A stretch of 64,000 nucleotides of DNA, taken from NCBI GenBank assembly GCA_050173015.1, contig JBFXLE010000011.1:33232-97231 (forward strand). Direction: 5' to 3'. This DNA is from Calditrichaceae bacterium (GTDB lineage: Bacteria > Calditrichota > Calditrichia > Calditrichales > JBFXGD01). Both the position numbers and the translations under genes were made by a program. Shown here one piece after another: positions 7,415 to 32,109 of the stretch (positions are counted from its first letter, which is position 1; each line of letters starts with the position of its first letter). The notes beneath the pieces were generated by a model. The model was not told the origin of the DNA, did no database searches, and saw nothing but the letters and a program-made list of their open reading frames with translations.

Positions 7415-9250
7415 GTGGGGTATAAAAGCACAGCGGAATGTGTGAATGATCTGGAAAAACATGGTCATCTTATAAAAATAAAAGAAGAAACAGATCCATA
7501 TCTGGAGATGGCGGAAATTCAGAGAAGGGTTTATGAAGCGGACGGGCCCGCAATATATTTTGAGCGGGTAAAAGGGAGTCCTTTTCCTGCCGTGTCAAAT
7601 CTGTTTGGATCCTTAGCCAGAGCAAAATTTATCTTTAGGGATACTCTTGATGCTGTAGAGAAATTAGTCGCTCTTAAAGGTGATCCCTCCCTGGCGGTAA
7701 GAAATCCATCAAAATGGAGCGCCATTTCAAAAACTTTGTATCATTCATGGCCGAAAAGAGTCTTCGGGGGCCCGGTACTTTCCCAACAAACAACGATCGA
7801 TCAATTGCCGCAGATCCAATCCTGGCCCGGGGATGGGGGTGCGTTTATCACCCTTCCTCAGGTGTACACTGAGCATCCCGAATTTCCGGGTATTATGAAA
7901 TCTAACCTTGGAATGTATCGAATTCAGCTTGCCGGTAACCGTTATGAATTGAATCATGAAGTGGGGCTGCATTATCAGATCCACCGGGGAATTGGAACCC
8001 ACCATGCCGCCGCGTTACGTAGAGGTGAGCCTCTTAAAGTCAGTGTCTTTGTCGGAGGCCCGCCCGCTAATACTTTCGCGGCGGTGATGCCTTTACCCGA
8101 AGGACTGCCGGAGGTTGCTTTCTCGGGCGCTCTGAACGGCAGACGTTTCAGGTATTTACGCAGAAAAGGATATACAATCGCGGCAGAAGCCGATTTTTGC
8201 ATAACCGGTACGGTAACGCCGGGCGATCTGCTTCCCGAAGGGCCCTTTGGAGATCATCTTGGATATTACAGCATGAAACATGATTTCCCGGTGCTTAAGA
8301 TCGATAAAGTGTATCACAGAAGGGATGCGGTCTGGCCTTTTACGGTAGTCGGCAGGCCACCACAGGAGGATACGGTTTTTGGACAGCTTGTTCATGATAT
8401 CACCGGACCGGTAATTCCTGAAACCATTGCCGGGTTAAAGGCTGTCCACGCGGTTGACGCCGCCGGAGTCCATCCGCTATTGCTGGCCATCGGCAGCGAG
8501 CGTTATGTGCCCTATGAAAATGACCGTCAACCCCGCGAAATTCTGACAATCGCTAACGCCATCCTTGGATTTGGACAATTGTCACTGGCGAAATATTTGT
8601 TTATTACCGCGCGGGAAGATAATCCCGGGTTGAATATCCACGAGATTGATGAATATCTAATGCATGTCTTTGAGCGGGTGGATTGGAAACGTGATCTTCA
8701 TTTTCAGACAAATACCACCATTGATACTCTGGATTATTCCGGCACCGGATTAAATGAAGGGTCCAAGGTAATTATCGCGGCAGCAGGAAGAAAGCGCCGG
8801 ACTCTTTTACAGAAATTACCGCTAAATTTGAAGCTCCCCGATGACTTTAACGATCCAAAGTTAGTCATGCCGGGGGTTATAACCATAAAAGGTCCAAAAT
8901 TTGAAGAAACAAAATTCGGATATCAGGCTATGGAACAACTTAACGCATGGCTGGATACCCACAAGGGCGTGGGCGGAATCGCGATGATCGTGGTGGTCGA
9001 TGACAGTAAATTTGTTTCTCAGAACCTGAAAAATTTCTTATGGGTGACATTTACAAGATCAAATCCGTCCCATGATATTTACGGAGTCGACAGCTTTTCT
9101 TCTCATAAACATTGGGGATGCGGCGGGCCGTTGATTATTGATGCCAGAATCAAGCCGCATCACGCGCCTCCGCTTGTCGAGAATCCGGAAATCACTAAAA
9201 GAGTGGATGCTCTCGGCGCCAGGGGCGGTAGTTTGCACGGAATAATTTAG
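7415..9250 (+). CDS. UbiD-family (prenylated-FMN-dependent) decarboxylase, long menaquinone-biosynthesis-type form
   Basis: GTG start 7 nt after AAGAGG, 611 aa. The N-terminus YKSTAECVNDLEKHGHLIKIKEE and overall UbiD-like layout are recalled from the family. Confidence 0.8.
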   Translation: MGYKSTAECVNDLEKHGHLIKIKEETDPYLEMAEIQRRVYEADGPAIYFERVKGSPFPAVSNLFGSLARAKFIFRDTLDAVEKLVALKGDPSLAVRNPSKWSAISKTLYHSWPKRVFGGPVLSQQTTIDQLPQIQSWPGDGGAFITLPQVYTEHPEFPGIMKSNLGMYRIQLAGNRYELNHEVGLHYQIHRGIGTHHAAALRRGEPLKVSVFVGGPPANTFAAVMPLPEGLPEVAFSGALNGRRFRYLRRKGYTIAAEADFCITGTVTPGDLLPEGPFGDHLGYYSMKHDFPVLKIDKVYHRRDAVWPFTVVGRPPQEDTVFGQLVHDITGPVIPETIAGLKAVHAVDAAGVHPLLLAIGSERYVPYENDRQPREILTIANAILGFGQLSLAKYLFITAREDNPGLNIHEIDEYLMHVFERVDWKRDLHFQTNTTIDTLDYSGTGLNEGSKVIIAAAGRKRRTLLQKLPLNLKLPDDFNDPKLVMPGVITIKGPKFEETKFGYQAMEQLNAWLDTHKGVGGIAMIVVVDDSKFVSQNLKNFLWVTFTRSNPSHDIYGVDSFSSHKHWGCGGPLIIDARIKPHHAPPLVENPEITKRVDALGARGGSLHGII

Positions 9251-9295
9251 CGCCAATTTGAAAAATTAAATTCTCTATCCAAAAAGGAGCGGGAA

Positions 9296-10654
9296 ATGAG
9301 CAGAAAAATAGTAGTCATCGGCGGTGTTGCCGCGGGTATGTCCGCTGCAAGCAGAGCCAGAAGAAATGATCCTGATGCATCGATCATTGTCTTTCAGAAA
9401 GAAAACGCGGTTTCTTACGGATCCTGCGGTTTACCCTATTATATTGCTGACGATATCAAAGAAGCTGAAACTCTGATTGCCATTTCAGCAGATGAATTCA
9501 GGCAGAAACGAAATATTGAAGTCCGTTTAAATCACGAGGGAATATCCTTTAATCCCAGGGAGAAGACGGTCGAAATACGAGATCTCGGGACAGGGATGAT
9601 TCATGACTATCCTTATGATAAATTAATTATTGCCACCGGCGCGCGGGCGGCGTTACCTCCCATTCCCGGCAAAGAATTAAAAAATGTTTTTGTGGTCAGA
9701 AATCTGACCGACGGACAGAACATAAAATCACACATCGAGAATGATCGTCCGGCAACTGCGGTAGTTGTGGGCGGCGGCTATATCGGTCTGGAAATGGCCG
9801 AAGCTCTCTCAAGGCAGGGGCTTCGTGTTTCGGTTGTCGAGGCGCAGGAACGGGTTATGCTGAACATAGACCCTGAATTATCTGAAAAAATTGAATCAGA
9901 AATGGAAGAAAAAGGGTGCAAAGTATATACTTCAAACGGTGTTCAGGCCATTCTCGGCTCCGATCGTGTAAATAGTGTGCGTTTAATGAACGGGGATGAG
10001 ATTGCCGCTGACATGGTGATTTTATCGGTTGGAGTAAAGCCAAATGTTGAATTTGCAATTACCGGAGGCGTACGTACAGGAAAAACCGGCGCCATAGAGG
10101 TCAATCAGAAAATGGAAACAAATGTCCAGAGCGTATATGCCGCGGGTGATTGCGCGGAAGTAAAAAATCTGGTTACGAATAAAATGGATTATATCCCATT
10201 GGGGACAACAGCCAATAAACAGGGGCGGGTTGCGGGTGATAACGCCAGCGGCCGGTTTGCCAGATTTTCGGGTGTGGCAGGTACAGCGGTGGTGAAAATT
10301 TTTGATCTGGAGGTGGCGCGGACGGGAATCACAACCACACAAGCTCTAAATTTAAAGATGAATCCACGTTCCGTGATGATAACCGGTAAATCAAGGGCGG
10401 GATATTATCCCGGTAAAGAAGATATTACCCTGAAATTAATATTCCGTGGAGATAACGGCCGGTTACTCGGCGCTCACATGATGGGTAAAGAAGGGGTAGC
10501 AAAACGGATTGATGTTTTCGCGACAGCTTTACAGCAAAAAATGACAGTGATGGAAATCTCAGAACTGGATTTGAGCTATGCTCCGCCGTATGCTCCGGTA
10601 TGGGATCCGATACTGATCGCCGCAAATCAGGCAGCTAAGTCATTCGAAAAATAG
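9296..10654 (+). CDS. FAD-dependent pyridine nucleotide-disulfide oxidoreductase (CoA-disulfide reductase / NADH oxidase family)
   Basis: AAGGAG RBS. Motifs: VVIGGVAAGMSAA (FAD), the single redox Cys motif SYGSCGLPYY, VVVGGGYIGLE (NAD) and AAGDC. Confidence 0.8.
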   Translation: MSRKIVVIGGVAAGMSAASRARRNDPDASIIVFQKENAVSYGSCGLPYYIADDIKEAETLIAISADEFRQKRNIEVRLNHEGISFNPREKTVEIRDLGTGMIHDYPYDKLIIATGARAALPPIPGKELKNVFVVRNLTDGQNIKSHIENDRPATAVVVGGGYIGLEMAEALSRQGLRVSVVEAQERVMLNIDPELSEKIESEMEEKGCKVYTSNGVQAILGSDRVNSVRLMNGDEIAADMVILSVGVKPNVEFAITGGVRTGKTGAIEVNQKMETNVQSVYAAGDCAEVKNLVTNKMDYIPLGTTANKQGRVAGDNASGRFARFSGVAGTAVVKIFDLEVARTGITTTQALNLKMNPRSVMITGKSRAGYYPGKEDITLKLIFRGDNGRLLGAHMMGKEGVAKRIDVFATALQQKMTVMEISELDLSYAPPYAPVWDPILIAANQAAKSFEK

Positions 10655-10661
10655 ACCGGTC

Positions 10662-11195
10662 TCATCGCTCAATATAATTTTTTAGCGAGGATAGATTCAA
10701 ATTTATCAGCTCATTGAATGCGGGCCGGACAATTATAAAGTCCATTAGTTTTGACAGTACGGGAGGCGCCATATAAGTGATTTCCCAAATGGCTTCCGTG
10801 CTTCCGTCCGGTAGTGCTTCCAGTACAATGGACTGCCGGATATTATGAATTAACGATTTCCTTACCGTATCGATCTGAGTAAAAGTGATCCGGTCAGATG
10901 ACTCGTAAATTTCTATCCGTTCTTTAATTTTCAGCTCTCTTCCGATGATTGAATAATCTACAACACGCAGGGATTTATTAAGTGAGACTTCGGGATAAAA
11001 TTCTATCTGCCGTATAGATTTATACCAATTCGAATATTCATTTGGTCCGGTAACCGCTGCCCAGACAACCGTTTCGGGCGCCTCAATTGTAATCGATTTC
11101 CTTATACTGGTTTCGGGATTTAATATGATCCCGGTTACTAAAATGATAGAAAATAGTACGATAAGAATTGCTGAAACCACAGCTGAAGTTTTCAT
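10662..11195 (-). CDS. Membrane-anchored SRPBCC (START/Bet v1-like) fold protein
   Basis: I prefer the internal ATG at 11195 (MKTSAVVSAILIV...). It overlaps the upstream TGA in an ATGA junction. One TM helix, then the ITIEAPETVVWAAV... pattern of SRPBCC proteins. The longer ORF-track start (11300) would overlap the upstream T9SS tail. Confidence 0.6.
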   Translation of the reverse strand: MKTSAVVSAILIVLFSIILVTGIILNPETSIRKSITIEAPETVVWAAVTGPNEYSNWYKSIRQIEFYPEVSLNKSLRVVDYSIIGRELKIKERIEIYESSDRITFTQIDTVRKSLIHNIRQSIVLEALPDGSTEAIWEITYMAPPVLSKLMDFIIVRPAFNELINLNLSSLKNYIER

Positions 11196-11971
11196 CTGAT
11201 TAAGAGCATCTTTTTGGTATGGATTTGTTTTTGTCCCGTCAGACGGTAATAATATAATCCTGACGCGGCCGGGATACCGTTTTCGGACTGTCCGTCCCAT
11301 AGAACGGTGTGTCTGCCCGTATTGTATATTCCGTCTGCCAGGCTACGAACTAATCTACCCCGGCTGTCAAAAATTTGCAAACTAATTTTTTGAGGACGGT
11401 CCAGTGAGAATCTGATGGTGGTTTCGGGATTAAAGGGATTGGGAAAATTGTGATTCAGCACAAAACTGATCGGATTTTCGGGACCGGAATCAACTGATGT
11501 TGCCAAAAGTCCGTCGATGGAAGCCCTGATATCGGAGATGTTTACGCCAAATCTTAAATATCTGATAATTCCTTCCTGATCGACCACTACACTGTAATCA
11601 TTAGCAACCTTATATGCAGCGCCGGTTTGTTGTCCGTTAAGCAGCAGAGGGTATTGAATCCCTGTACTGTTTTTAAAACTTTGGAGCTGTGAAGAGTTTC
11701 CGTTATAGTAATCAATTCCAACCGCCTGAAAAACGGTTTCACTATAATTATCCGCGATTTGGGTTTGCGTACTGCCGCCGGCAGCGAGACAAGACGGTCA
11801 ATTGTATCCGACAAAAAATAGATAGATTACTTTGCCTTTATAATCACTGAGTTTAAATGTGCCTCCGTCCAGCCGGTTTAAAGTAAAATCGGGCGCCGGA
11901 TCGCCTACCCCGGCAGTCAGTCCCGCTGAAAGGAGAAGTACCAATATTAACGGGAGAAACTTCGATTGCAT
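11192..11971 (-). CDS. Candidate selenoprotein: secreted thioredoxin-fold (TlpA/redoxin-like) protein with UxxC motif and T9SS C-terminal sorting domain
   Basis: The ATG at 11971 follows GAGGA. The product starts with signal peptide MQSKFLPLILVLLLSAGLTAG, then DPAPDFTL...YKGKVIYLFFVGYN. An in-frame TGA follows at 11800-11798 (codon 58), then PSCLAAGG...GIQYPLLLNG...VVVDQEGIIRY. The tail is NHNFPNPFNPETTIRF...LYYYRL...MLLIR. There is one continuous frame of 260 codons. The ORF track shows only the C-terminal 131 aa plus an out-of-frame ORF. Confidence 0.6.
11768..11786 (-). promoter_or_regulatory. SECIS-like stem-loop downstream of the in-frame UGA
   Basis: mRNA sense is CG-CUGCC-GGC-GGCAG-UA-CG. 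Five GC-rich pairs close a GGC loop and extend by two pairs across a UA bulge. The stem begins 12-13 nt after the UGA. Confidence 0.4.
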
Positions 11972-11990
11972 TATATATCCTCATTGTATG

Positions 11991-13505
11991 TTAAAATAGA
12001 CTATTTAAGCGAAATTCTAATCCTTCAAACGGCTGCACCTGATAACATATTCCGCCGGTACACGCATTACCCCCGCGCCGTTTCCCATAGAATAAGGCGG
12101 TAGAATGATTCTGATTAATCTGATAATTCAGGCTGAATCCAAGCCATGATTTGTAAATATCATTTTGAAGCGGATTTAGGGTGTTGTTTTCTACCGGATC
12201 ATTTGTCAGTTCAAACGCCAGACCACCCGCCAGATTCGGAGCGCGAGTGAACGACAAGCCAAGGTATCCGTTTTTTGTGGTGTGATTTTGCTCCTGATTA
12301 AATCGGTAGTTTCTGTCAAATTTTTGCGCCTGAATATCAACGGCAAGGCTCCAGATGCTGAGAAAATCATGCTCCAGGGTGATTCCCGCTGTCATCCGCT
12401 CATAAACATCGATGATCGGATCCTCTGACCAGTTAATAAAAGGTCTGATCAGAAAGTAGTCATTCAGGTAATAATTGATGTCAGCATGATATTCCTGAAA
12501 TGTGCGCTTAAAGCTGCCGAATTCATTAGTGGCTCTGGCGTGGTTTAGCGTTAATGTATTAAGTCCGTTGAGATTTATCAGGCTTTCGAGCTGAAAACCG
12601 CGTTCATCCTGCGGCTCGACCGAATGGGTGCTCCTGTTCAATAAAATGAAGGAATGCTCCCGGACAAGCTGCGGTGGATCATTAAAATTGAGAGTAAACT
12701 CATGATAATCCTTATATTCGGCTATTATGCTTATACGGTTATAACTAAAACTTACCGATGAATAGAAAGCATGCCGGCTTTCTGTGCCCAATCTAAAAGG
12801 ATCATTCGCGTCATCCAAATCCTGGACATATTCCACGTAGTATTGACTTCCGGAGATACCGTTGCCACTCAGGTTGAACCCTCCGAATTCGGTGATCTCA
12901 TTCTGGTAATCCTGACGGAGATACAACAGGCCGGGGGTCATTAAATTCCCTAAAGAAAAATTGATTTCACCTGCCTGAAGCAGGTTTGGGCGTCGCAAAT
13001 CACGGTCATTTGTCGGCGGGCGTGTTAAGTCAAGAGGTTTTCCGTATAATACTTTCGCCTGAAAAAAATCTCCGGTATATCCCGCCGAAACTCCTTCTAT
13101 ATCCTTGAAGAAACCGTAATGTTGTCTTGTACCAATGTCTTCAAAAGTAACACCCGGTATCTCATAAGTGCGCAGCAGGAGACCGCGTCCGAGAATGTCA
13201 AAAAAGTTTCCAAGCCTGATCTGAAAATGGTTGTTTTGGAATTTTATATATTTTTGAGAGATTTGATTATACCGGTGGTCATCATTGGTGACCTCGAACG
13301 ATTCAGTACGCAGACCGGCACTGAAATTATTATACCGATAATCCAGATTCATCTGATTGTATAAATTGTAATGCGCGGGCTGGCCACTGTCCGGGATGTT
13401 TCCCAGTTGATATTCAAGACGGTTGGATACGGAGATTTGGCCTGATGTGATTGCGCCGGTGAATAGAATCAGAACTAAAGGAAGCAAATAATACTTATTT
13501 TTCAA
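11991..13505 (-). CDS. Predicted outer-membrane beta-barrel protein (unknown function)
   Basis: Signal peptide MKNKYYLLPLVLILFTGAITSG, alternating aromatic/polar beta-strand pattern throughout, and a C-terminal ...EFRLNSLF ending in Phe. It overlaps the upstream TlpA stop. Confidence 0.6.
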   Translation of the reverse strand: MKNKYYLLPLVLILFTGAITSGQISVSNRLEYQLGNIPDSGQPAHYNLYNQMNLDYRYNNFSAGLRTESFEVTNDDHRYNQISQKYIKFQNNHFQIRLGNFFDILGRGLLLRTYEIPGVTFEDIGTRQHYGFFKDIEGVSAGYTGDFFQAKVLYGKPLDLTRPPTNDRDLRRPNLLQAGEINFSLGNLMTPGLLYLRQDYQNEITEFGGFNLSGNGISGSQYYVEYVQDLDDANDPFRLGTESRHAFYSSVSFSYNRISIIAEYKDYHEFTLNFNDPPQLVREHSFILLNRSTHSVEPQDERGFQLESLINLNGLNTLTLNHARATNEFGSFKRTFQEYHADINYYLNDYFLIRPFINWSEDPIIDVYERMTAGITLEHDFLSIWSLAVDIQAQKFDRNYRFNQEQNHTTKNGYLGLSFTRAPNLAGGLAFELTNDPVENNTLNPLQNDIYKSWLGFSLNYQINQNHSTALFYGKRRGGNACTGGICYQVQPFEGLEFRLNSLF

Positions 13506-14001
13506 CTTTACTCTCCGGCGAATTTAATATTTTTAGGATTTCCTCTTCAATGATATTTTCATCTCCGGAACGGTAGCCCTTGTGGATATAAATGATTTCA
13601 CGATCACTGTTGATAATCAGCAGGGTTGGTATGTTGATGATGCCCAGTTCGGAGGCAAAGGAGCTGTTAGGGTCAAGAAGAATGGGATAACTTATTTTAT
13701 AAGTCTTTGCGAAGGGTTTAATTTTGGCGGAATTACGCGGGCTGTCCACATTGATTCCGATAAACGCAACGCCGCTATTTTTAAATTGTTCGGAAAGTTT
13801 GTTCAATTTTGGAAGCGCTTTCGCACAAGGTTTGCACCAGGTGGCCCAAAAATCAATAACAGTTACATTCCCGCCTTTCAGTTCAGAAAAATTTGTCCAT
13901 TTATTGTCGATATTTTTTAATTTAAAATCAGGGATAGTTCTTCCGGCCAAGACGGTTTGCAACAGAATAAGAGTGAAATATATCATAAATCTGGAACGCA
14001 T
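13495..14001 (-). CDS. TlpA-family thiol:disulfide oxidoreductase (periplasmic thioredoxin fold)
   Basis: Signal peptide, then IPDFKL...VTVIDFWATWCKPCAKALP (WCxxC), then YPILLD and IPTLLIIN. Confidence 0.85.
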   Translation of the reverse strand: MRSRFMIYFTLILLQTVLAGRTIPDFKLKNIDNKWTNFSELKGGNVTVIDFWATWCKPCAKALPKLNKLSEQFKNSGVAFIGINVDSPRNSAKIKPFAKTYKISYPILLDPNSSFASELGIINIPTLLIINSDREIIYIHKGYRSGDENIIEEEILKILNSPESKVEK

Positions 14002-14147: not shown

Positions 14148-14528
14148 TTGTTCATGAAAAAAAAACTAATCGAACTAAACGAAGGATTAGATAATCAGCA
14201 TGTCAACCTGCTCTGTCTTGAAGTAGGAAGAGATATTCAGGTAATACTCAGCGGTGGTGCGTCCCATATCGGCGCGATCGGATTGGGTGTGTGTTATGAC
14301 AGTGATAAGGCAAACTCATCGGTAATTGCCGTTCACGGTCACAAAGAGGACGATCTTGTAAAAAAAGCGGCATACAGGTTAAGCAAGGCATTAAGAAGAA
14401 ACGTAGCTGTTTCGGCCGGCATTCATTATGATGATTTAACCGGTAATGATATCTCTGCAATTCTCGCCAATGCGGATCTATTGATTGACCGGTTAATAGA
14501 ATTGCTCGAAAAAGACTCTAATCGTTAG
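14148..14528 (+). CDS. Hypothetical protein (weak recollection of LpdD-like small partner proteins of UbiD decarboxylases; unverified)
   Basis: 126-aa ORF with motifs GGASHIGAIGLG, HGHKEDD and AGIHYDD. Start uncertain (TTG 14148 or ATG 14154). Confidence 0.45.
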   Translation: MFMKKKLIELNEGLDNQHVNLLCLEVGRDIQVILSGGASHIGAIGLGVCYDSDKANSSVIAVHGHKEDDLVKKAAYRLSKALRRNVAVSAGIHYDDLTGNDISAILANADLLIDRLIELLEKDSNR

Positions 14529-22723: not shown

Positions 22724-25177
22724 TTACTTTATCAGCATCATTTTTCTAATCGAACTTTCGCGGTTATCAACGGACAGTTTATAAAAATAAAGCCCGCTTG
22801 ATAAATTTGAACCGTCAAATTTTACCTGATAGGTTCCGGTGGCCTGATTTCTATCGACCAGGCGCGCCACAGTTTGACCAAGGATATTATAAACAAGCAC
22901 ACTTACATGGCCGGGTTTGGAGATAGAATATTTGATGGTCGTTTCCGGATTAAACGGATTCGGATAATTTTGATTTAATTTGAAATCCGCTATAATAAAG
23001 CCGTCATCATGAACCGCAGTGGGAATTCCAAATTCACTGGCGCCGATATCAATCCGGTTGCCGTAGATCCTGTCCACGCCATTTATCGCGTACTGATACA
23101 AATTTAAACCGGTTGTATCCGGGGTACCGGCATCGATGCACGCGGAACCCTCCGAAAGGTTGTATAGAAGGGAATCGGCGAATTCCGGGGCGACGTCCAG
23201 ACAATTGGAATAAATCCCGCTGTACTCAATTCCGGCTCCGTCACCGCTGAAACCGGAGGAATCACCCTCGATGTCACAGTAATAAAAATCAGGATCACAG
23301 GTAGTTTCCAACCGGATCTGTGTGCTTTCATTGCCATAAATAATGTTATTGTACAACTCATTTACAGAAGTTGCCCGGAAACTAATTCCTCCGGATTGAT
23401 TTTCTACTATCGTATTGTTAATAAAACGAGAATTGGACTGATAGCTGTATATACCATAACTGGAATTATTGAAGATCAAATTGCTGACAAAATCCGCCTG
23501 ATTGGAGTATCCGGTATAAACGCCGGATGATGAATTATTGAATATTTTATTGTTATAGATCCAGGGTTGAGAATCGCTCCCGCCAATCAACATACCGTAA
23601 CCATAATTATCATGAATACCGCAGTTTTCGATCACAGGCGAACTATTATCAATATAAACGGCCGCATTGATCCCGTGATTAAAACGAATATCTGAATGAC
23701 GAATAAGCAATTTTGAAAATCCTGTGATGTAAAATGCCCCACCATCTTTGTTGATATTGTTGGGATCCCCGTAAGGATTTCCGTATTCTATAACGCAGTA
23801 GGAAAAAACCGATGTGTCGTTGGCCGCAGGAGTTTGATTAAATAAAATCCGGTTCCAGCCTTCTTGCTGATCCGCGGCGGTGAACTTAATAGAATCACTC
23901 TCCGCGCCTTCCGCGATAAGAGTCCCCTGCACATCGATATAGAAAAATCCCTGGAATATTATTTCGACACCGGGTTCGATAGTCAGTGTGGTCCCGTCTT
24001 TAATAATGATATTTCCATCGATCAGATAGGGTGAATTTTCTTTCCCCCACACCCCCGCAACGGTATCAGTTTTGACATAATATTCGTACGCGCCGATATC
24101 GATCAATCCATTGCTAAATCGTTGTTTACCGGATAGATCAAGAACAGGTAAGGAAGCGTCATAAATATCGTTATATCCCTTGTCCCGGCAGGGAGAAAGC
24201 TTCTGAAGGGCATAGGGGGCATCTCCGGTATTCATAAAGAGAGGATCACTATCAAGGCAATTGCTATAGATTCCCGTAAATTCTGCGCCTGCGCCGTCTC
24301 CGTTAAAATATTCTTTTCCGCCCATGATATTGCAATTGTAAAAATTAGGATCACAGGTTGTTTCCAACTGAATTTGTGTCCCGGTATTAGCATAAATAGT
24401 ATTATTGTACAAATTATTTACCGAATTCGCGCGGAAAAAAATTCCTCCGTTTTGATTTTCTACTATCGTATTGTTAATAAAACGAGAATTGGACTGATAG
24501 CTGTATATACCATAATTGAAATTATTGAATATAAGATTATTGACAAAATCCGCCTGATTGGAGTATCCGGTATAAACGCCGGATGATGAATTGTTGAATA
24601 TTTTATTATTAAAAATCCCGGGTTGAGAACCGCTCCCGCCAATCAACATACCGTAACCATAATTATCATGAATACCGCAGTTTTCGATTACAGGCGAAGC
24701 GTTATCAATATAAACGGCCGCATTGGTGCCATGATTCTGACGAATATCGGAATGACGAATGCTCAGTTTTGAAAAGCCAGTGATGTAAAAAGCGCCGCCG
24801 TCCTGACTGTTTGAATAAGGTTTACCGTATTCAATAATACAGTAATCGAACAAGGAACTGTCATTCGTAGCGGGCGTCCCGGAGAAAAGAATCCGGTTCC
24901 ACCCCTCCGTTATGTTGGATGCCGTAAACTTGATCGAGTCACCGGCGGTGCCCACTGCCTGAACGGAACCCTTGACATCAATCATGTAAAATCCTTCTGC
25001 AATAACGGTTGTACCGGGATTGACCCGCAGATGAACACCGTCTTCAATTAAAATGTCACCTTTTACAAAAACCGTGTCCGCATCCCACGCTGAATCGGTT
25101 GAAATCGTTCCGGAAACATCGATAGATGAGGCCAGAGTAAAAGATGTCAGACATAATACCAGTAAAATTTTGTACAT
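22724..25177 (-). CDS. Secreted protein with two tandem right-handed parallel beta-helix modules and a T9SS C-terminal sorting domain
   Basis: Signal peptide MYKILLVLCLTSFTLASS. Repeated NN(T/L)I(F/V)xN beta-helix rungs. C-terminal LNQNYPNPFNPETTIKYSI...GLYFYKL...MMLIK. Confidence 0.8.
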   Translation of the reverse strand: MYKILLVLCLTSFTLASSIDVSGTISTDSAWDADTVFVKGDILIEDGVHLRVNPGTTVIAEGFYMIDVKGSVQAVGTAGDSIKFTASNITEGWNRILFSGTPATNDSSLFDYCIIEYGKPYSNSQDGGAFYITGFSKLSIRHSDIRQNHGTNAAVYIDNASPVIENCGIHDNYGYGMLIGGSGSQPGIFNNKIFNNSSSGVYTGYSNQADFVNNLIFNNFNYGIYSYQSNSRFINNTIVENQNGGIFFRANSVNNLYNNTIYANTGTQIQLETTCDPNFYNCNIMGGKEYFNGDGAGAEFTGIYSNCLDSDPLFMNTGDAPYALQKLSPCRDKGYNDIYDASLPVLDLSGKQRFSNGLIDIGAYEYYVKTDTVAGVWGKENSPYLIDGNIIIKDGTTLTIEPGVEIIFQGFFYIDVQGTLIAEGAESDSIKFTAADQQEGWNRILFNQTPAANDTSVFSYCVIEYGNPYGDPNNINKDGGAFYITGFSKLLIRHSDIRFNHGINAAVYIDNSSPVIENCGIHDNYGYGMLIGGSDSQPWIYNNKIFNNSSSGVYTGYSNQADFVSNLIFNNSSYGIYSYQSNSRFINNTIVENQSGGISFRATSVNELYNNIIYGNESTQIRLETTCDPDFYYCDIEGDSSGFSGDGAGIEYSGIYSNCLDVAPEFADSLLYNLSEGSACIDAGTPDTTGLNLYQYAINGVDRIYGNRIDIGASEFGIPTAVHDDGFIIADFKLNQNYPNPFNPETTIKYSISKPGHVSVLVYNILGQTVARLVDRNQATGTYQVKFDGSNLSSGLYFYKLSVDNRESSIRKMMLIK
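23012..25121. repeat. Intragenic tandem duplication (two ~1056-bp / 352-aa copies) inside the beta-helix gene
   Basis: The string ttctactatcgtattgttaataaaacgagaattggactgatagctgtatataccataa occurs at 23402 and 24458 (offset 1056). Flanking several hundred nt are identical at most positions. Confidence 0.85.
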
Positions 25178-30391: not shown

Positions 30392-30646
30392 CCCGGTCGA
30401 TGGTTTGGGAAAAATTGTCCACTGATTTCACGGATTACACAGATTACTTAGAAAAAAAATATATCAATTTAATTCTAATCCGTGAAAATTAGTGAAATCC
30501 GTGGACCATCTTGAAAGGCCATCGAAAAAGAAACAAGCCCGCGAATTACACGAATTACCACTAAAATGAAAAAAAGTAATTATTAATTGGTGAAAATTAG
30601 TGAAATTAGTGGGCCATCTTAAAAAACCGCAAGAGAAGAAGAATTG

Positions 30647-30728
30647 TCCACAGATTGCACAGATTATTTAGAAAAATAACTATATAAATTTAATTCTAAT
30701 CCGTGAAAATCGGTGAAATCCGTGGACC
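30647..30728. repeat. Representative module A (imperfect 82-nt hairpin; 90-91 nt in copies carrying the extra 9-mer)
   Basis: The sequence is gtccacagattgcacagatta - A/T-rich loop tttagaaaaataactatataaatttaattc - taatccgtgaaaatcggtgaaatccgtggac. The outer 6 bp gtccac/gtggac are perfectly complementary. Confidence 0.85.
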
Positions 30729-30758
30729 ATCTTGAAAGGCCATCGAAAAAGAAACAAG

Positions 30759-30836
30759 CCCGCGAATTACACGAATTACCACTAAAATGAAAAAAAGTAA
30801 TTATTAATTGGTGAAAATTAGTGAAATTAGTGGGCC
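30759..30836. repeat. Representative module B (imperfect 78-nt hairpin, diverged homologue of module A)
   Basis: The sequence is gcccgcgaattacacgaattaccac - loop taaaatgaaaaaaagtaattatt - aattggtgaaaattagtgaaattagtgggc. It has the same arm/loop/arm layout, and the following linker starts with the same c/tatctt. Confidence 0.85.
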
Positions 30837-32109
30837 ATCTTAAAAAACCGCAAGAGAAGAAGAATTGTCCACAGATTGCACAGATTATTTAGAAAAATAA
30901 CTATATAAATTTAATTCTAATCCGTGAAAATCGGTGAAATCCGTGGACCATCTTGAAAGGCCATCGAAAAAGAAACAAGCCCGCGAATTACACGAATTAC
31001 CACTAAAATGAAAAAAAGTAATTATTAATTGGTGAAAATTAGTGAAATTAGTGGGCTATCTTAAAAAGCCGCAAGAGAAGAAGATTGTCCACAGATTGCA
31101 CGGATTACACAGATTATTTAGAAAAATAACTATATAAATTTAATTCTAATCCGTGAAAATCGGTGAAATTCGTGGACCATCTTGAAGGGCCATCTAAAAA
31201 GAAACAAGCCCGCGAATTACACGAATTACCACTAAAATGAAAAAAAGTAATTATTAATTGGTGAAAATTAGTGAAATTAGTGGGCTATCTTAAAAAGCCG
31301 CAAGAGAAGAAGATTGTCCACAGATTGCACGGATTACACAGATTATTTAGAAAAATAACTATATAAATTTAATTCTAATCCGTGAAAATCGGTGAAATTC
31401 GTGGACCATCTTGAAGGGCCATCTAAAAAGAAACAAGCCCGCGAATTACACGAATTACCACTAAAATGAAAAAAAGTAATTATTAATTGGTGAAAATTAG
31501 TGAAATTAGTGGGCTATCTTAAAAAGCCGCAAGAGAAGAAGAAATGTCCACAGATTGCACGGATTACACAGATTATTTAGAAAAATAACTATATAAATTT
31601 AATTCTAATCCGTGAAAATCGGTGAAATCCGTGGACCATCTTGAAAGGCCATCGAAAAAGAAACAAGCCCGCGAATTACACGAATTACCACTAAAATGAA
31701 AAAAAGTAATTATTAATTGGTGAAAATTAGTGAAATTAGTGGGCTATCTTAAAAAGCCGCAAGAGAAGAAGATTGTCCACAGATTGCACGGATTACACAG
31801 ATTATTTAGAAAAATAACTATATAAATTTAATTCTAATCCGTGAAAATCAGTGAAATTCGTGGACCATCTTGAAAGGCCATCGAAAAAGAAACAAGCCCG
31901 CGAATTACGCGAATTACCACTAAAATGAAAAAAAGTAATTATTAATTGGTGAAAATTAGTGAAATTAGTGGGCTATCTTAAAAAGCCGCAAGAGAAAAAG
32001 AATTGTCCTCAGATTGCACGGATTACACAGATTGTTTAGAAAAAAAATATATATAAAATTAATTCTAATCCGTGAAAATCAGTGAAATTCGTGGACGATC
32101 TTTGCTTTT

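Follow-up and report, generated by a model that had tools for sequence, protein, structure and literature searches.

A predicted selenocysteine-containing redoxin with a type IX secretion sorting domain in a Calditrichaceae bacterium

Does an in-frame TGA at the active site of a thioredoxin-fold gene mark a dead gene, or does it encode selenocysteine (Sec)? The question is raised by a locus on the minus strand of a 64,000-nucleotide (nt) stretch of DNA from a Calditrichaceae bacterium (NCBI GenBank assembly GCA_050173015.1, contig JBFXLE010000011.1, positions 33,232 to 97,231), which is the whole stretch that was analyzed and is called here the window; all coordinates without a locus label are those of the window. 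According to our analysis, the frame 11971..11192 is very probably one intact gene whose UGA at codon 58 is decoded as Sec. The product is predicted, from its sequence, to be a secreted redoxin of TlpA/ResA-like fold that combines a signal peptide, a linker, and a C-terminal tail for a type IX secretion system (T9SS). Both Sec insertion itself and the location of the protein are what we infer from these data.

A redoxin gene cut in annotation by an in-frame TGA

The minus-strand frame 11971..11192 translates into 259 amino acids (aa) with one in-frame TGA, at 11800-11798 (codon 58), downstream of which the frame is open up to the terminal stop at 11194-11192. After the putative signal sequence it gives DPAPDFTLNRLDGGTFKLSDYKGKVIYLFFVGYN, then the TGA, and then PSCLAAGGSTQ.... 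A first-pass annotation, made from the letters of the window and a list of open reading frames (ORFs), had proposed this reading, from an ATG at 11971 with GAGGA upstream to a 259-aa product ending at 11192, and the sequence bore all of it out, with the ATG at 11971-11969 and GAGGA six nt before it (11982-11978). It had also remarked that the ORF list overlooks the gene, which indeed appears there solely as two ORFs, of 57 aa (11798..11971) and 131 aa (11192..11587), with codons 59 to 128 in neither. The NCBI annotation consists of only the last 131 residues (MGD9488300.1, "FlgD immunoglobulin-like domain containing protein"), and the 57-aa N-terminal fragment is without an accession. The same annotation split is found in L001, L002-5, L006, and the contig of P0006 (loci and protein homologues are given here by their labels), and this fate is shared by at least six related genes with a T9SS tail. 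The terminal TGA of the redoxin gene shares an ATGA junction with the ATG of the SRPBCC gene 11195..10662, the coupled junction reported at first pass. A six-frame scan of the window for TGA codons with an open frame on both sides, the list being judged by eye, revealed no second evident recoded gene.

TGA and Cys at one column of the homologues

A protein search returned six full-length homologues of the same architecture (258 to 270 aa), all with Cys at the codon-58 column, in the motifs GFNCPTC, GYSCPTC, GAGCPHC, GYNCGSC, GYGCPFC, and GYNCPHC. Together with L102 (GWNCPFC), the one close Cys form added by a metagenome scan, which yielded no further close Sec form, seven Cys forms are available at this column (P0001, P0002, P0003, P0005, P0008, P0009, and L102). 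Every homologue compared has an equivalent N-terminal hydrophobic segment. The short homologues P0004, P0006, and P0007 come from contigs on which the gene is likewise divided, into a fragment of about 55 aa that belongs to AhpC-TSA and a C-terminal piece; translation across the gap puts TGA at the codon-58 column in L001 and L002. The first-pass annotation had placed the stop where TlpA/redoxin proteins have their nucleophilic Cys, by comparison with FWATWCKPC in the neighboring gene 13495..14001; this motif is present there, and in every full-length homologue the TGA column is occupied by the first Cys of CxxC.

Ten divergent homologues have TGA in the same column (L001, L002, L006, L007, L008, L009, L014, L025, L056, and L073). 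The residues around it read GYS-stop-PFC in L001 and L002-5, GYY-stop-PTC in L006, which is a Calditrichaceae metagenome-assembled genome (MAG), GAT-stop-GIC in L007, GCT-stop-FTC in L008, and ASW-stop-PVC in L014, and a T9SS-type tail also closes the genes of L007, L008, and L014. In all TGA-bearing homologues the frames are open and homologous on either side of the TGA. Codons 59 to 128 of the window gene, those missing from both annotated pieces, share 39 to 54% identity with the close Sec and Cys homologues, a level near that of the flanking parts, and the ten divergent TGA lineages have only 17 to 49% identity in the stretch downstream of the TGA. The column thus holds Cys or TGA, and protein conservation persists past the stop, which answers the comparison with homologues suggested at first pass; in the tailed redoxin, Sec and Cys alternate among sister lineages.

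The TGA is also stable within the species. The exact 57-residue fragment followed by a stop is recorded in nine contigs, and codon 58 is TGA in all seven that were read, the sources being three MAGs in NCBI and four assemblies in Logan. One of these strains, L090, has 13 other nucleotide differences in the gene, none of which shifts the frame or creates a stop, and the resulting amino acid changes all lie outside the redoxin domain.

Two of the homologous loci have features of their own. At L014:1732 (CAZYOC010000319.1), the TGA redoxin domain and T9SS tail come after a long open upstream frame; read-through would give about 667 aa, and this gene may encode a larger multidomain selenoprotein. 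At L008:5545-5883, the record has only masked N letters immediately upstream of the Sec-redoxin gene, which hide the neighbor on that side.

A SECIS-like hairpin downstream of the TGA

The published model of the bacterial selenocysteine insertion sequence (SECIS) specifies an apical loop of 3 to 9 nt with G at position 1 or 2 of the loop, an upper stem of 4 to 16 bp, a spacing of 16 to 37 nt between the UGA and the loop, and an energy of at most -7.5 kcal/mol (PMC13188914). In the window, a hairpin begins about 12 nt past the UGA and places its apical loop 18 nt past it, on an upper stem of 6 bp (Table 1), and all of its dimensions fall within the limits of this model; the check for a bacterial SECIS that the first-pass annotation had named thus turns up a candidate at the expected distance. 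Each of the other ten TGA loci in a first set, made of genomes and encoding contigs, has a comparable hairpin whose stem sequence differs, for instance CGGCUG-GUC-CAGCCG in L001, UCUGUC-GGU-GGCAGA in L006, and GGUCCCA-GGC-UGGGGCU in L007.

When a position-specific hairpin criterion drawn from this model was applied, a hairpin of this kind was found in 11 of 11 TGA loci of the first set versus 7 of 44 Cys loci (Fisher test, 2.7e-7). The corresponding counts in a second set, from metagenomes, are 1 of 4 and 0 of 29, which brings the totals to 12 of 15 for the TGA and 7 of 73 for the Cys loci. When the window sequence was recoded synonymously, a stem of equal or greater length arose in only 4.2% of cases, and the 11 loci give a combined p of 6.6e-10. 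Aligning the hairpins with MAFFT was rejected, as the structural register was lost. In a codon-level alignment the hairpin registers are offset by 1 to 2 nt between lineages, and stem pairs were for this reason counted on loop-anchored sequences: among eight hairpins, 47 of 48 stem cells are paired, with 3 to 5 pair types for each of the six inner stem positions, an arrangement in which the anchoring itself biases toward pairing. At the hairpin site of the close Cys homologues, L097 and L101 lack the hairpin (-3.4 and -6.3 kcal/mol, respectively) and L099 folds into another structure (-9.0 kcal/mol). Being position specific in the TGA forms and rare in the Cys forms, the hairpin points to a SelB-type mechanism.

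A marine metagenomic scaffold of the second set, L128 (TARA_R110002126_G_scaffold12375_5), carries two redoxin genes with TGA at the CxxC position, in the contexts FYGFW-stop-GPC and FYGFW-stop-PPC. The SECIS of these genes may contain a bulge or lie at another place.

Domain composition and comparison with known redoxins

When the product was searched with Cys substituted for the stop, the Pfam families AhpC-TSA (PF00578; residues 22 to 138, 58.5 bits versus a cut-off of 26) and Redoxin (residues 22 to 146, 48.4 bits versus 26.6) were matched, followed by FlgD_ig (residues 184 to 247, 38.6 bits versus 27) and by the NCBIfam T9SS type A sorting domain TIGR04183 (residues 176 to 256 of 259, 37.3 bits versus 23). 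The thioredoxin-fold pattern past the TGA and the secretion tail that had been read by eye at first pass thus both score above cut-off. The active site reads FFVGYN-U-PS-C, that is, UxxC without Thr or Ser three residues ahead of Sec, and its GYN-U-P-S-C motif is without the Trp of W-C-x-x-C. By sequence, the nearest solved structures are exported TlpA/ResA-like oxidoreductases (3kcm, 2ls5, and ResA), in which U58 falls opposite the first Cys of WCPPC.

A structure was modeled with AlphaFold 2 on the Cys homologue P0001, which is 46% identical to the window protein. This model has a thioredoxin fold at residues 20 to 155 with a predicted local distance difference test score above 93, followed by a disordered linker and then a beta-sandwich at the C terminus, and its first Cys immediately precedes the helix 56-72, at the helix N terminus. 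A Foldseek comparison of the P0001 model with the PDB put a putative protein disulfide isomerase from Bacteroides, ResA, a DsbE-like protein from Chlorobium, and the pneumococcal surface thioredoxin Etrx2 on top, with target TM-scores of 0.78 to 0.85.

Judged on its defining features (PF00578 and UxxC), the predicted protein belongs to the known UxxC peroxiredoxin-like (Prx-like) thiol:disulfide oxidoreductase selenoproteins. UxxC selenoproteins of PF00578 go back to the earliest surveys of bacterial selenoproteomes and are still on the current list (PMC1088965, PMC13188914), so that the first-pass view of UxxC thioredoxin-fold proteins as an established class agrees with the literature: the Sargasso Sea survey lists 22 sequences of a "Prx-like protein" with UXXC (PMC1088965), and the Prx-like thiol:disulfide oxidoreductase (PF00578, UxxC/UxxU) is "predicted with high confidence" (PMC13188914). 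The window protein shares with this class the AhpC-TSA/Redoxin domain, Sec in the first position of UxxC and not in a peroxiredoxin TxxU, the existence of Cys homologues, and a bacterial SECIS-like hairpin just 3' of the UGA. Its subfamily differs in the GY[NSY]-U-P-x-C motif, the putative signal peptide, the T9SS tail, the TlpA-DUF6029 operon, and the Calditrichaceae host.

The resemblance to TlpA, ResA, and DsbE (CcmG) lies in the closest structures (3kcm, 2ls5, 1su9, and 3gl3), in the nucleophile at the N terminus of helix 1 (in the Cys homologue model), in predicted export, and in a bona fide TlpA-type paralogue within the window operon. However, the window protein has a predicted Sec for Cys and GYN-U instead of W-C, and it scores only 40.2 bits against the cut-off of 170 of the ResA subfamily model NF002854, a generic model and the best NCBIfam match for the redoxin part; no NCBIfam model is specific to this redoxin subfamily. 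Since the ResA cut-off is missed and the Trp of WCxxC is absent, we did not assign the protein to TlpA/ResA despite the similar fold. The WAxxUGC TlpA-like Sec families likewise share an exported thioredoxin-fold reductase scaffold with Sec, but their motif is UGC (of UxC type), whereas the window protein has UPxC and no match to NF041054, which is matched only by the Cys-form neighbor 13495..14001, and weakly.

With a T9SS tail in place of a membrane anchor, the protein is predicted to act outside the outer membrane. To our knowledge, no known reductant (DsbD/CcdA) reaches beyond that membrane. An experimental precedent for T9SS-delivered redoxins is HBP35 of Porphyromonas gingivalis, a T9SS cargo with a thioredoxin motif and thioredoxin activity in vitro that also takes part in the use of hemin (PMC2907840, PMC3120885). 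Both proteins fuse a thioredoxin-motif domain to a T9SS C-terminal domain, and HBP35 is secreted and surface attached via Por/T9SS; the likeness noted here is one of architecture. HBP35 differs in that it uses Cys, binds hemin, and is from Bacteroidota.

Alternative explanations for the TGA

Comparative evidence of the kind assembled here is the usual basis on which bacterial selenoproteins are predicted (PMC1088965, PMC13188914). Several observations nevertheless weigh against decoding as Sec or against the proposed architecture. No selA, selB, selD, or tRNA-Sec was found in the 64-kb window or the fetched loci: ARAGORN predicted zero tRNA genes in the window and 14 loci, and tblastn with Escherichia coli SelD and SelA queries (approximate sequences) returned nothing in the window or the fetched loci. 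Rfam has no match anywhere in the window, hairpin included. Folding energy alone is unexceptional at the hairpin site (z-score of 0.39 versus dinucleotide shuffles), and 43% of synonymous recodings fold as stably, because Ala-Ala-Gly-Gly codons are GC-rich whatever their wobble bases; whole-region folding energy was therefore discarded as an uninformative SECIS test in favor of the position-specific criterion, which, after the published model, was set once the first hairpins had been seen. Three of the four metagenome TGA redoxin genes (two in L128 and one in L147) are without a simple perfect hairpin by this criterion. Finally, the tail scores 25.8 bits with Por_Secre_tail, slightly short of the Pfam cut-off of 27, though TIGR04183 passes. 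In favor of Sec machinery there is one hint at the level of the phylum: Caldithrix abyssi, also of Calditrichota, encodes a selenophosphate synthetase with a NifS-like domain fused to it (PMC3916229).

A pseudogene would fit the way in which gene callers and NCBI handle the locus, as a 57-aa fragment and a 131-aa ORF, and the Sec machinery not seen in the window: a nonsense mutation would have killed a CxxC redoxin whose downstream frame has not yet decayed. We deem this very improbable, as the same-column TGA recurs in at least ten lineages of the divergence given above, all with intact frames, the strain variants have neither frameshift nor extra stop, the stop falls on the catalytic residue and precedes a SECIS-like hairpin in every first-set case, and translational coupling to the next gene is kept. 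The preference for read-through over a dead gene expressed at first pass is supported by these TGA-bearing homologues, their intact frames, and the hairpin. Being one base away from TGC or TGT, the TGA might also be a sequencing or assembly error for Cys, but seven contigs that were assembled independently have it (from no fewer than three NCBI MAGs and from four Logan runs, including the strain with 13 other differences), as do unrelated homologues from other samples; this check, proposed at first pass on sequencing reads, was done on assemblies and makes an error hardly credible. A similarly negligible chance is left for two separate products, a secreted 57-residue peptide and a sorting-domain protein started internally at the GTG at 11587. 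Gene finders call both ORFs, and HBP35 of P. gingivalis does yield internally initiated shorter forms (PMC2907840). However, the 70 intervening codons are conserved in frame as the core of the thioredoxin fold, the 131-residue product has no signal peptide and could thus not reach the T9SS, and the internal starts vary among homologues (190 aa in L001 and 143 aa in L002), as gene-caller artifacts would.

The remaining explanation accepts read-through but not Sec, with Cys carried on tRNA(Sec) under selenium limitation, near-cognate insertion of Trp or Cys at a leaky UGA-C, or a reassigned code. UGA followed by C is a weak termination context, and it is found in 8 of the 11 first-set loci, the window included; the C is there because the conserved Pro codon forces it. 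The homologous residue, on the other hand, is Cys and not Trp or Gly. TGA terminates 14 of the 50 long ORFs of the window, including those ending at 764 and 4440, which excludes a reassigned code and bears out the first-pass statement that TGA is an ordinary stop elsewhere. We consider read-through without Sec unlikely, and decoding of UGA as Sec in a single intact gene remains by far the most probable account of the frame.

Operon and genomic neighborhood

The redoxin gene is the third of four genes that form a minus-strand operon (Table 1), in which the TlpA and DUF6029 genes overlap by 11 nt, 19 nt separate DUF6029 from the redoxin, and the redoxin and SRPBCC genes overlap by 4 nt. The order TlpA-DUF6029-redoxin is also found in L006, with a Sec form, and in L097 and L099, with Cys forms, and the DUF6029 gene is syntenic in L090-L096, L006, L097, and L099. 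The redoxin and SRPBCC genes stand in this order, with the same 4 nt shared, in L002, L006, and the P0006 contig as well. The cassette spans 10662-14001 (minus strand) in the window, L006:1973-5312, L097:1991-4777, and L099:1475-4813; the SRPBCC gene closes it in the window and L006, and L097 and L099 have an extra untailed redoxin gene. DUF6029 has been proposed as a Wzi-like, porin-like outer-membrane beta-barrel (PMC9603273). This composition, in which the SRPBCC protein would be a membrane protein, suggests that the four-gene operon is an envelope redox module. No sigma-70-like promoter or intrinsic terminator stood out at the operon. A coenzyme A (CoA)-disulfide reductase gene (9296-10654, 452 aa) converges on the operon and ends 8 nt from its last gene. 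Near the Cys homologues, FecCD, TonB receptor, Fe-dependent repressor, and CtaA genes give a hint, and only that, of an iron/heme context.

TABLE 1 Features of the candidate selenoprotein gene and its operon in the window
Feature	Coordinates	Strand	Description	Basis
Complete candidate selenoprotein gene	11192..11971	minus	259 codons plus stop; predicted signal peptide, redoxin domain with U58-P-S-C61, linker, T9SS C-terminal sorting domain	
Shine-Dalgarno-like GAGGA	11978..11982	minus	Six nt 5' of the ATG 11971-11969	Read from sequence
Predicted Sec-dependent (translocon) signal peptide	11909..11971	minus	Residues 1-21 (MQSKFLPLILVLLLSAGLTAG); hydrophobic N terminus	Cleavage site inferred
In-frame UGA, predicted Sec codon 58	11798..11800	minus	First position of UxxC	Homologue column and recurrence in assemblies
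SECIS-like stem-loop	11765..11792	minus	GCUGCC-GGC-GGCAGU; upper stem 11785-11780 / 11776-11771; loop GGC 11779-11777; 4-bp lower stem; -10.0 kcal/mol	
AhpC-TSA/Redoxin thioredoxin-fold domain	11534..11908	minus	Residues 22-146	Pfam, PDB sequence matches, homologue model
T9SS type A C-terminal sorting domain	11204..11446	minus	Residues 176-256; FlgD_ig / Por_Secre_tail beta-sandwich	TIGR04183, Pfam, homologue model
TlpA/ResA-like thiol-disulfide oxidoreductase, first operon gene	13495..14001	minus	168 aa; WCKPC (Cys form)	NCBIfam ResA subfamily, 97.5 bits; NCBI "TlpA family protein disulfide reductase"
DUF6029 protein, second operon gene	11991..13505	minus	504 aa; putative outer-membrane beta-barrel	Pfam DUF6029, 84.9 bits
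SRPBCC (Polyketide_cyc2) protein, fourth operon gene	10662..11195	minus	177 aa; N-terminal hydrophobic segment	ATGA overlap

Elsewhere in the window, the gene 22724-25177 (minus strand) encodes an 817-aa right-handed beta-helix, NosD-like protein with a Por_Secre_tail match of 43.8 bits; as a second predicted T9SS cargo, it supports the use of a T9SS by this organism. Redox and cofactor genes flank the operon (7415-10654 and 14148-14528), namely those for a UbiD-family decarboxylase of 611 aa, the CoA-disulfide reductase, and a PAC_bac/LpdD-like protein of 126 aa. A further feature is a tandem array at 30409-32102, with 7.5 copies of a 229-bp unit at 96% matches, which fills 1.7 kb without an ORF of at least 40 aa; the genes on its two sides encode a phosphoglycerate-mutase-like protein and a Peptidase_S13 protein. 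Each unit contains two long imperfect hairpins made from CACNGATT-type heptads around AT-rich loops, and its RNA fold has an energy of -44.3 kcal/mol (z-score of -3.3). Eight copies of the 28-nt core AATCCGTGAAAATCNGTGAAATCCGTGG are present, all of them inside the array, and the array has no Rfam match.

Predicted mechanism and significance

According to the mechanism that we propose, SelB carrying Sec-tRNA(Sec) would bind the hairpin, and the ribosome would insert Sec at codon 58 instead of terminating. The preprotein would then be exported by the Sec translocon, lose its signal peptide, and fold in the periplasm, where the T9SS would recognize the C-terminal domain and pass the folded protein over the outer membrane, to be released or anchored at the surface. 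The pair U58/C61 is expected to carry out thiol-disulfide exchange via a selenylsulfide, with the selenolate attacking and Cys61 resolving. As a speculation, the co-operonic periplasmic TlpA and the beta-barrel could be the route by which reductant is supplied.

The unusual feature of the protein is its T9SS export tail. In the literature searched, we found no selenoprotein with a T9SS sorting domain and nothing relevant that links Calditrichaeota/Calditrichota with selenocysteine or selenoproteins. It is conceivable, and we put this forward only tentatively, as an idea that may well prove wrong, that these redoxins are the first class of bacterial selenoproteins delivered by the T9SS, with the Sec-redoxin as the outermost member of a four-gene module that moves thiol/selenol redox chemistry across the outer membrane; Sec might then be favored because its selenolate stays reactive and resists irreversible overoxidation outside the cell.

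Selenocysteine at the UxxC of a thioredoxin fold is a well-known phenomenon, and the step forward is therefore incremental and not conceptual. The public records misannotate the gene, and a dedicated family model would mend an error that recurs in Calditrichaceae and the related uncultured lineages examined. Two questions become testable, namely which reductant would serve an enzyme outside the outer membrane and why Sec and Cys alternate in sister lineages. For the biology of the group, the predicted gene places selenocysteine use in Calditrichaceae and points to selenoproteins that would leave the cell via the T9SS.

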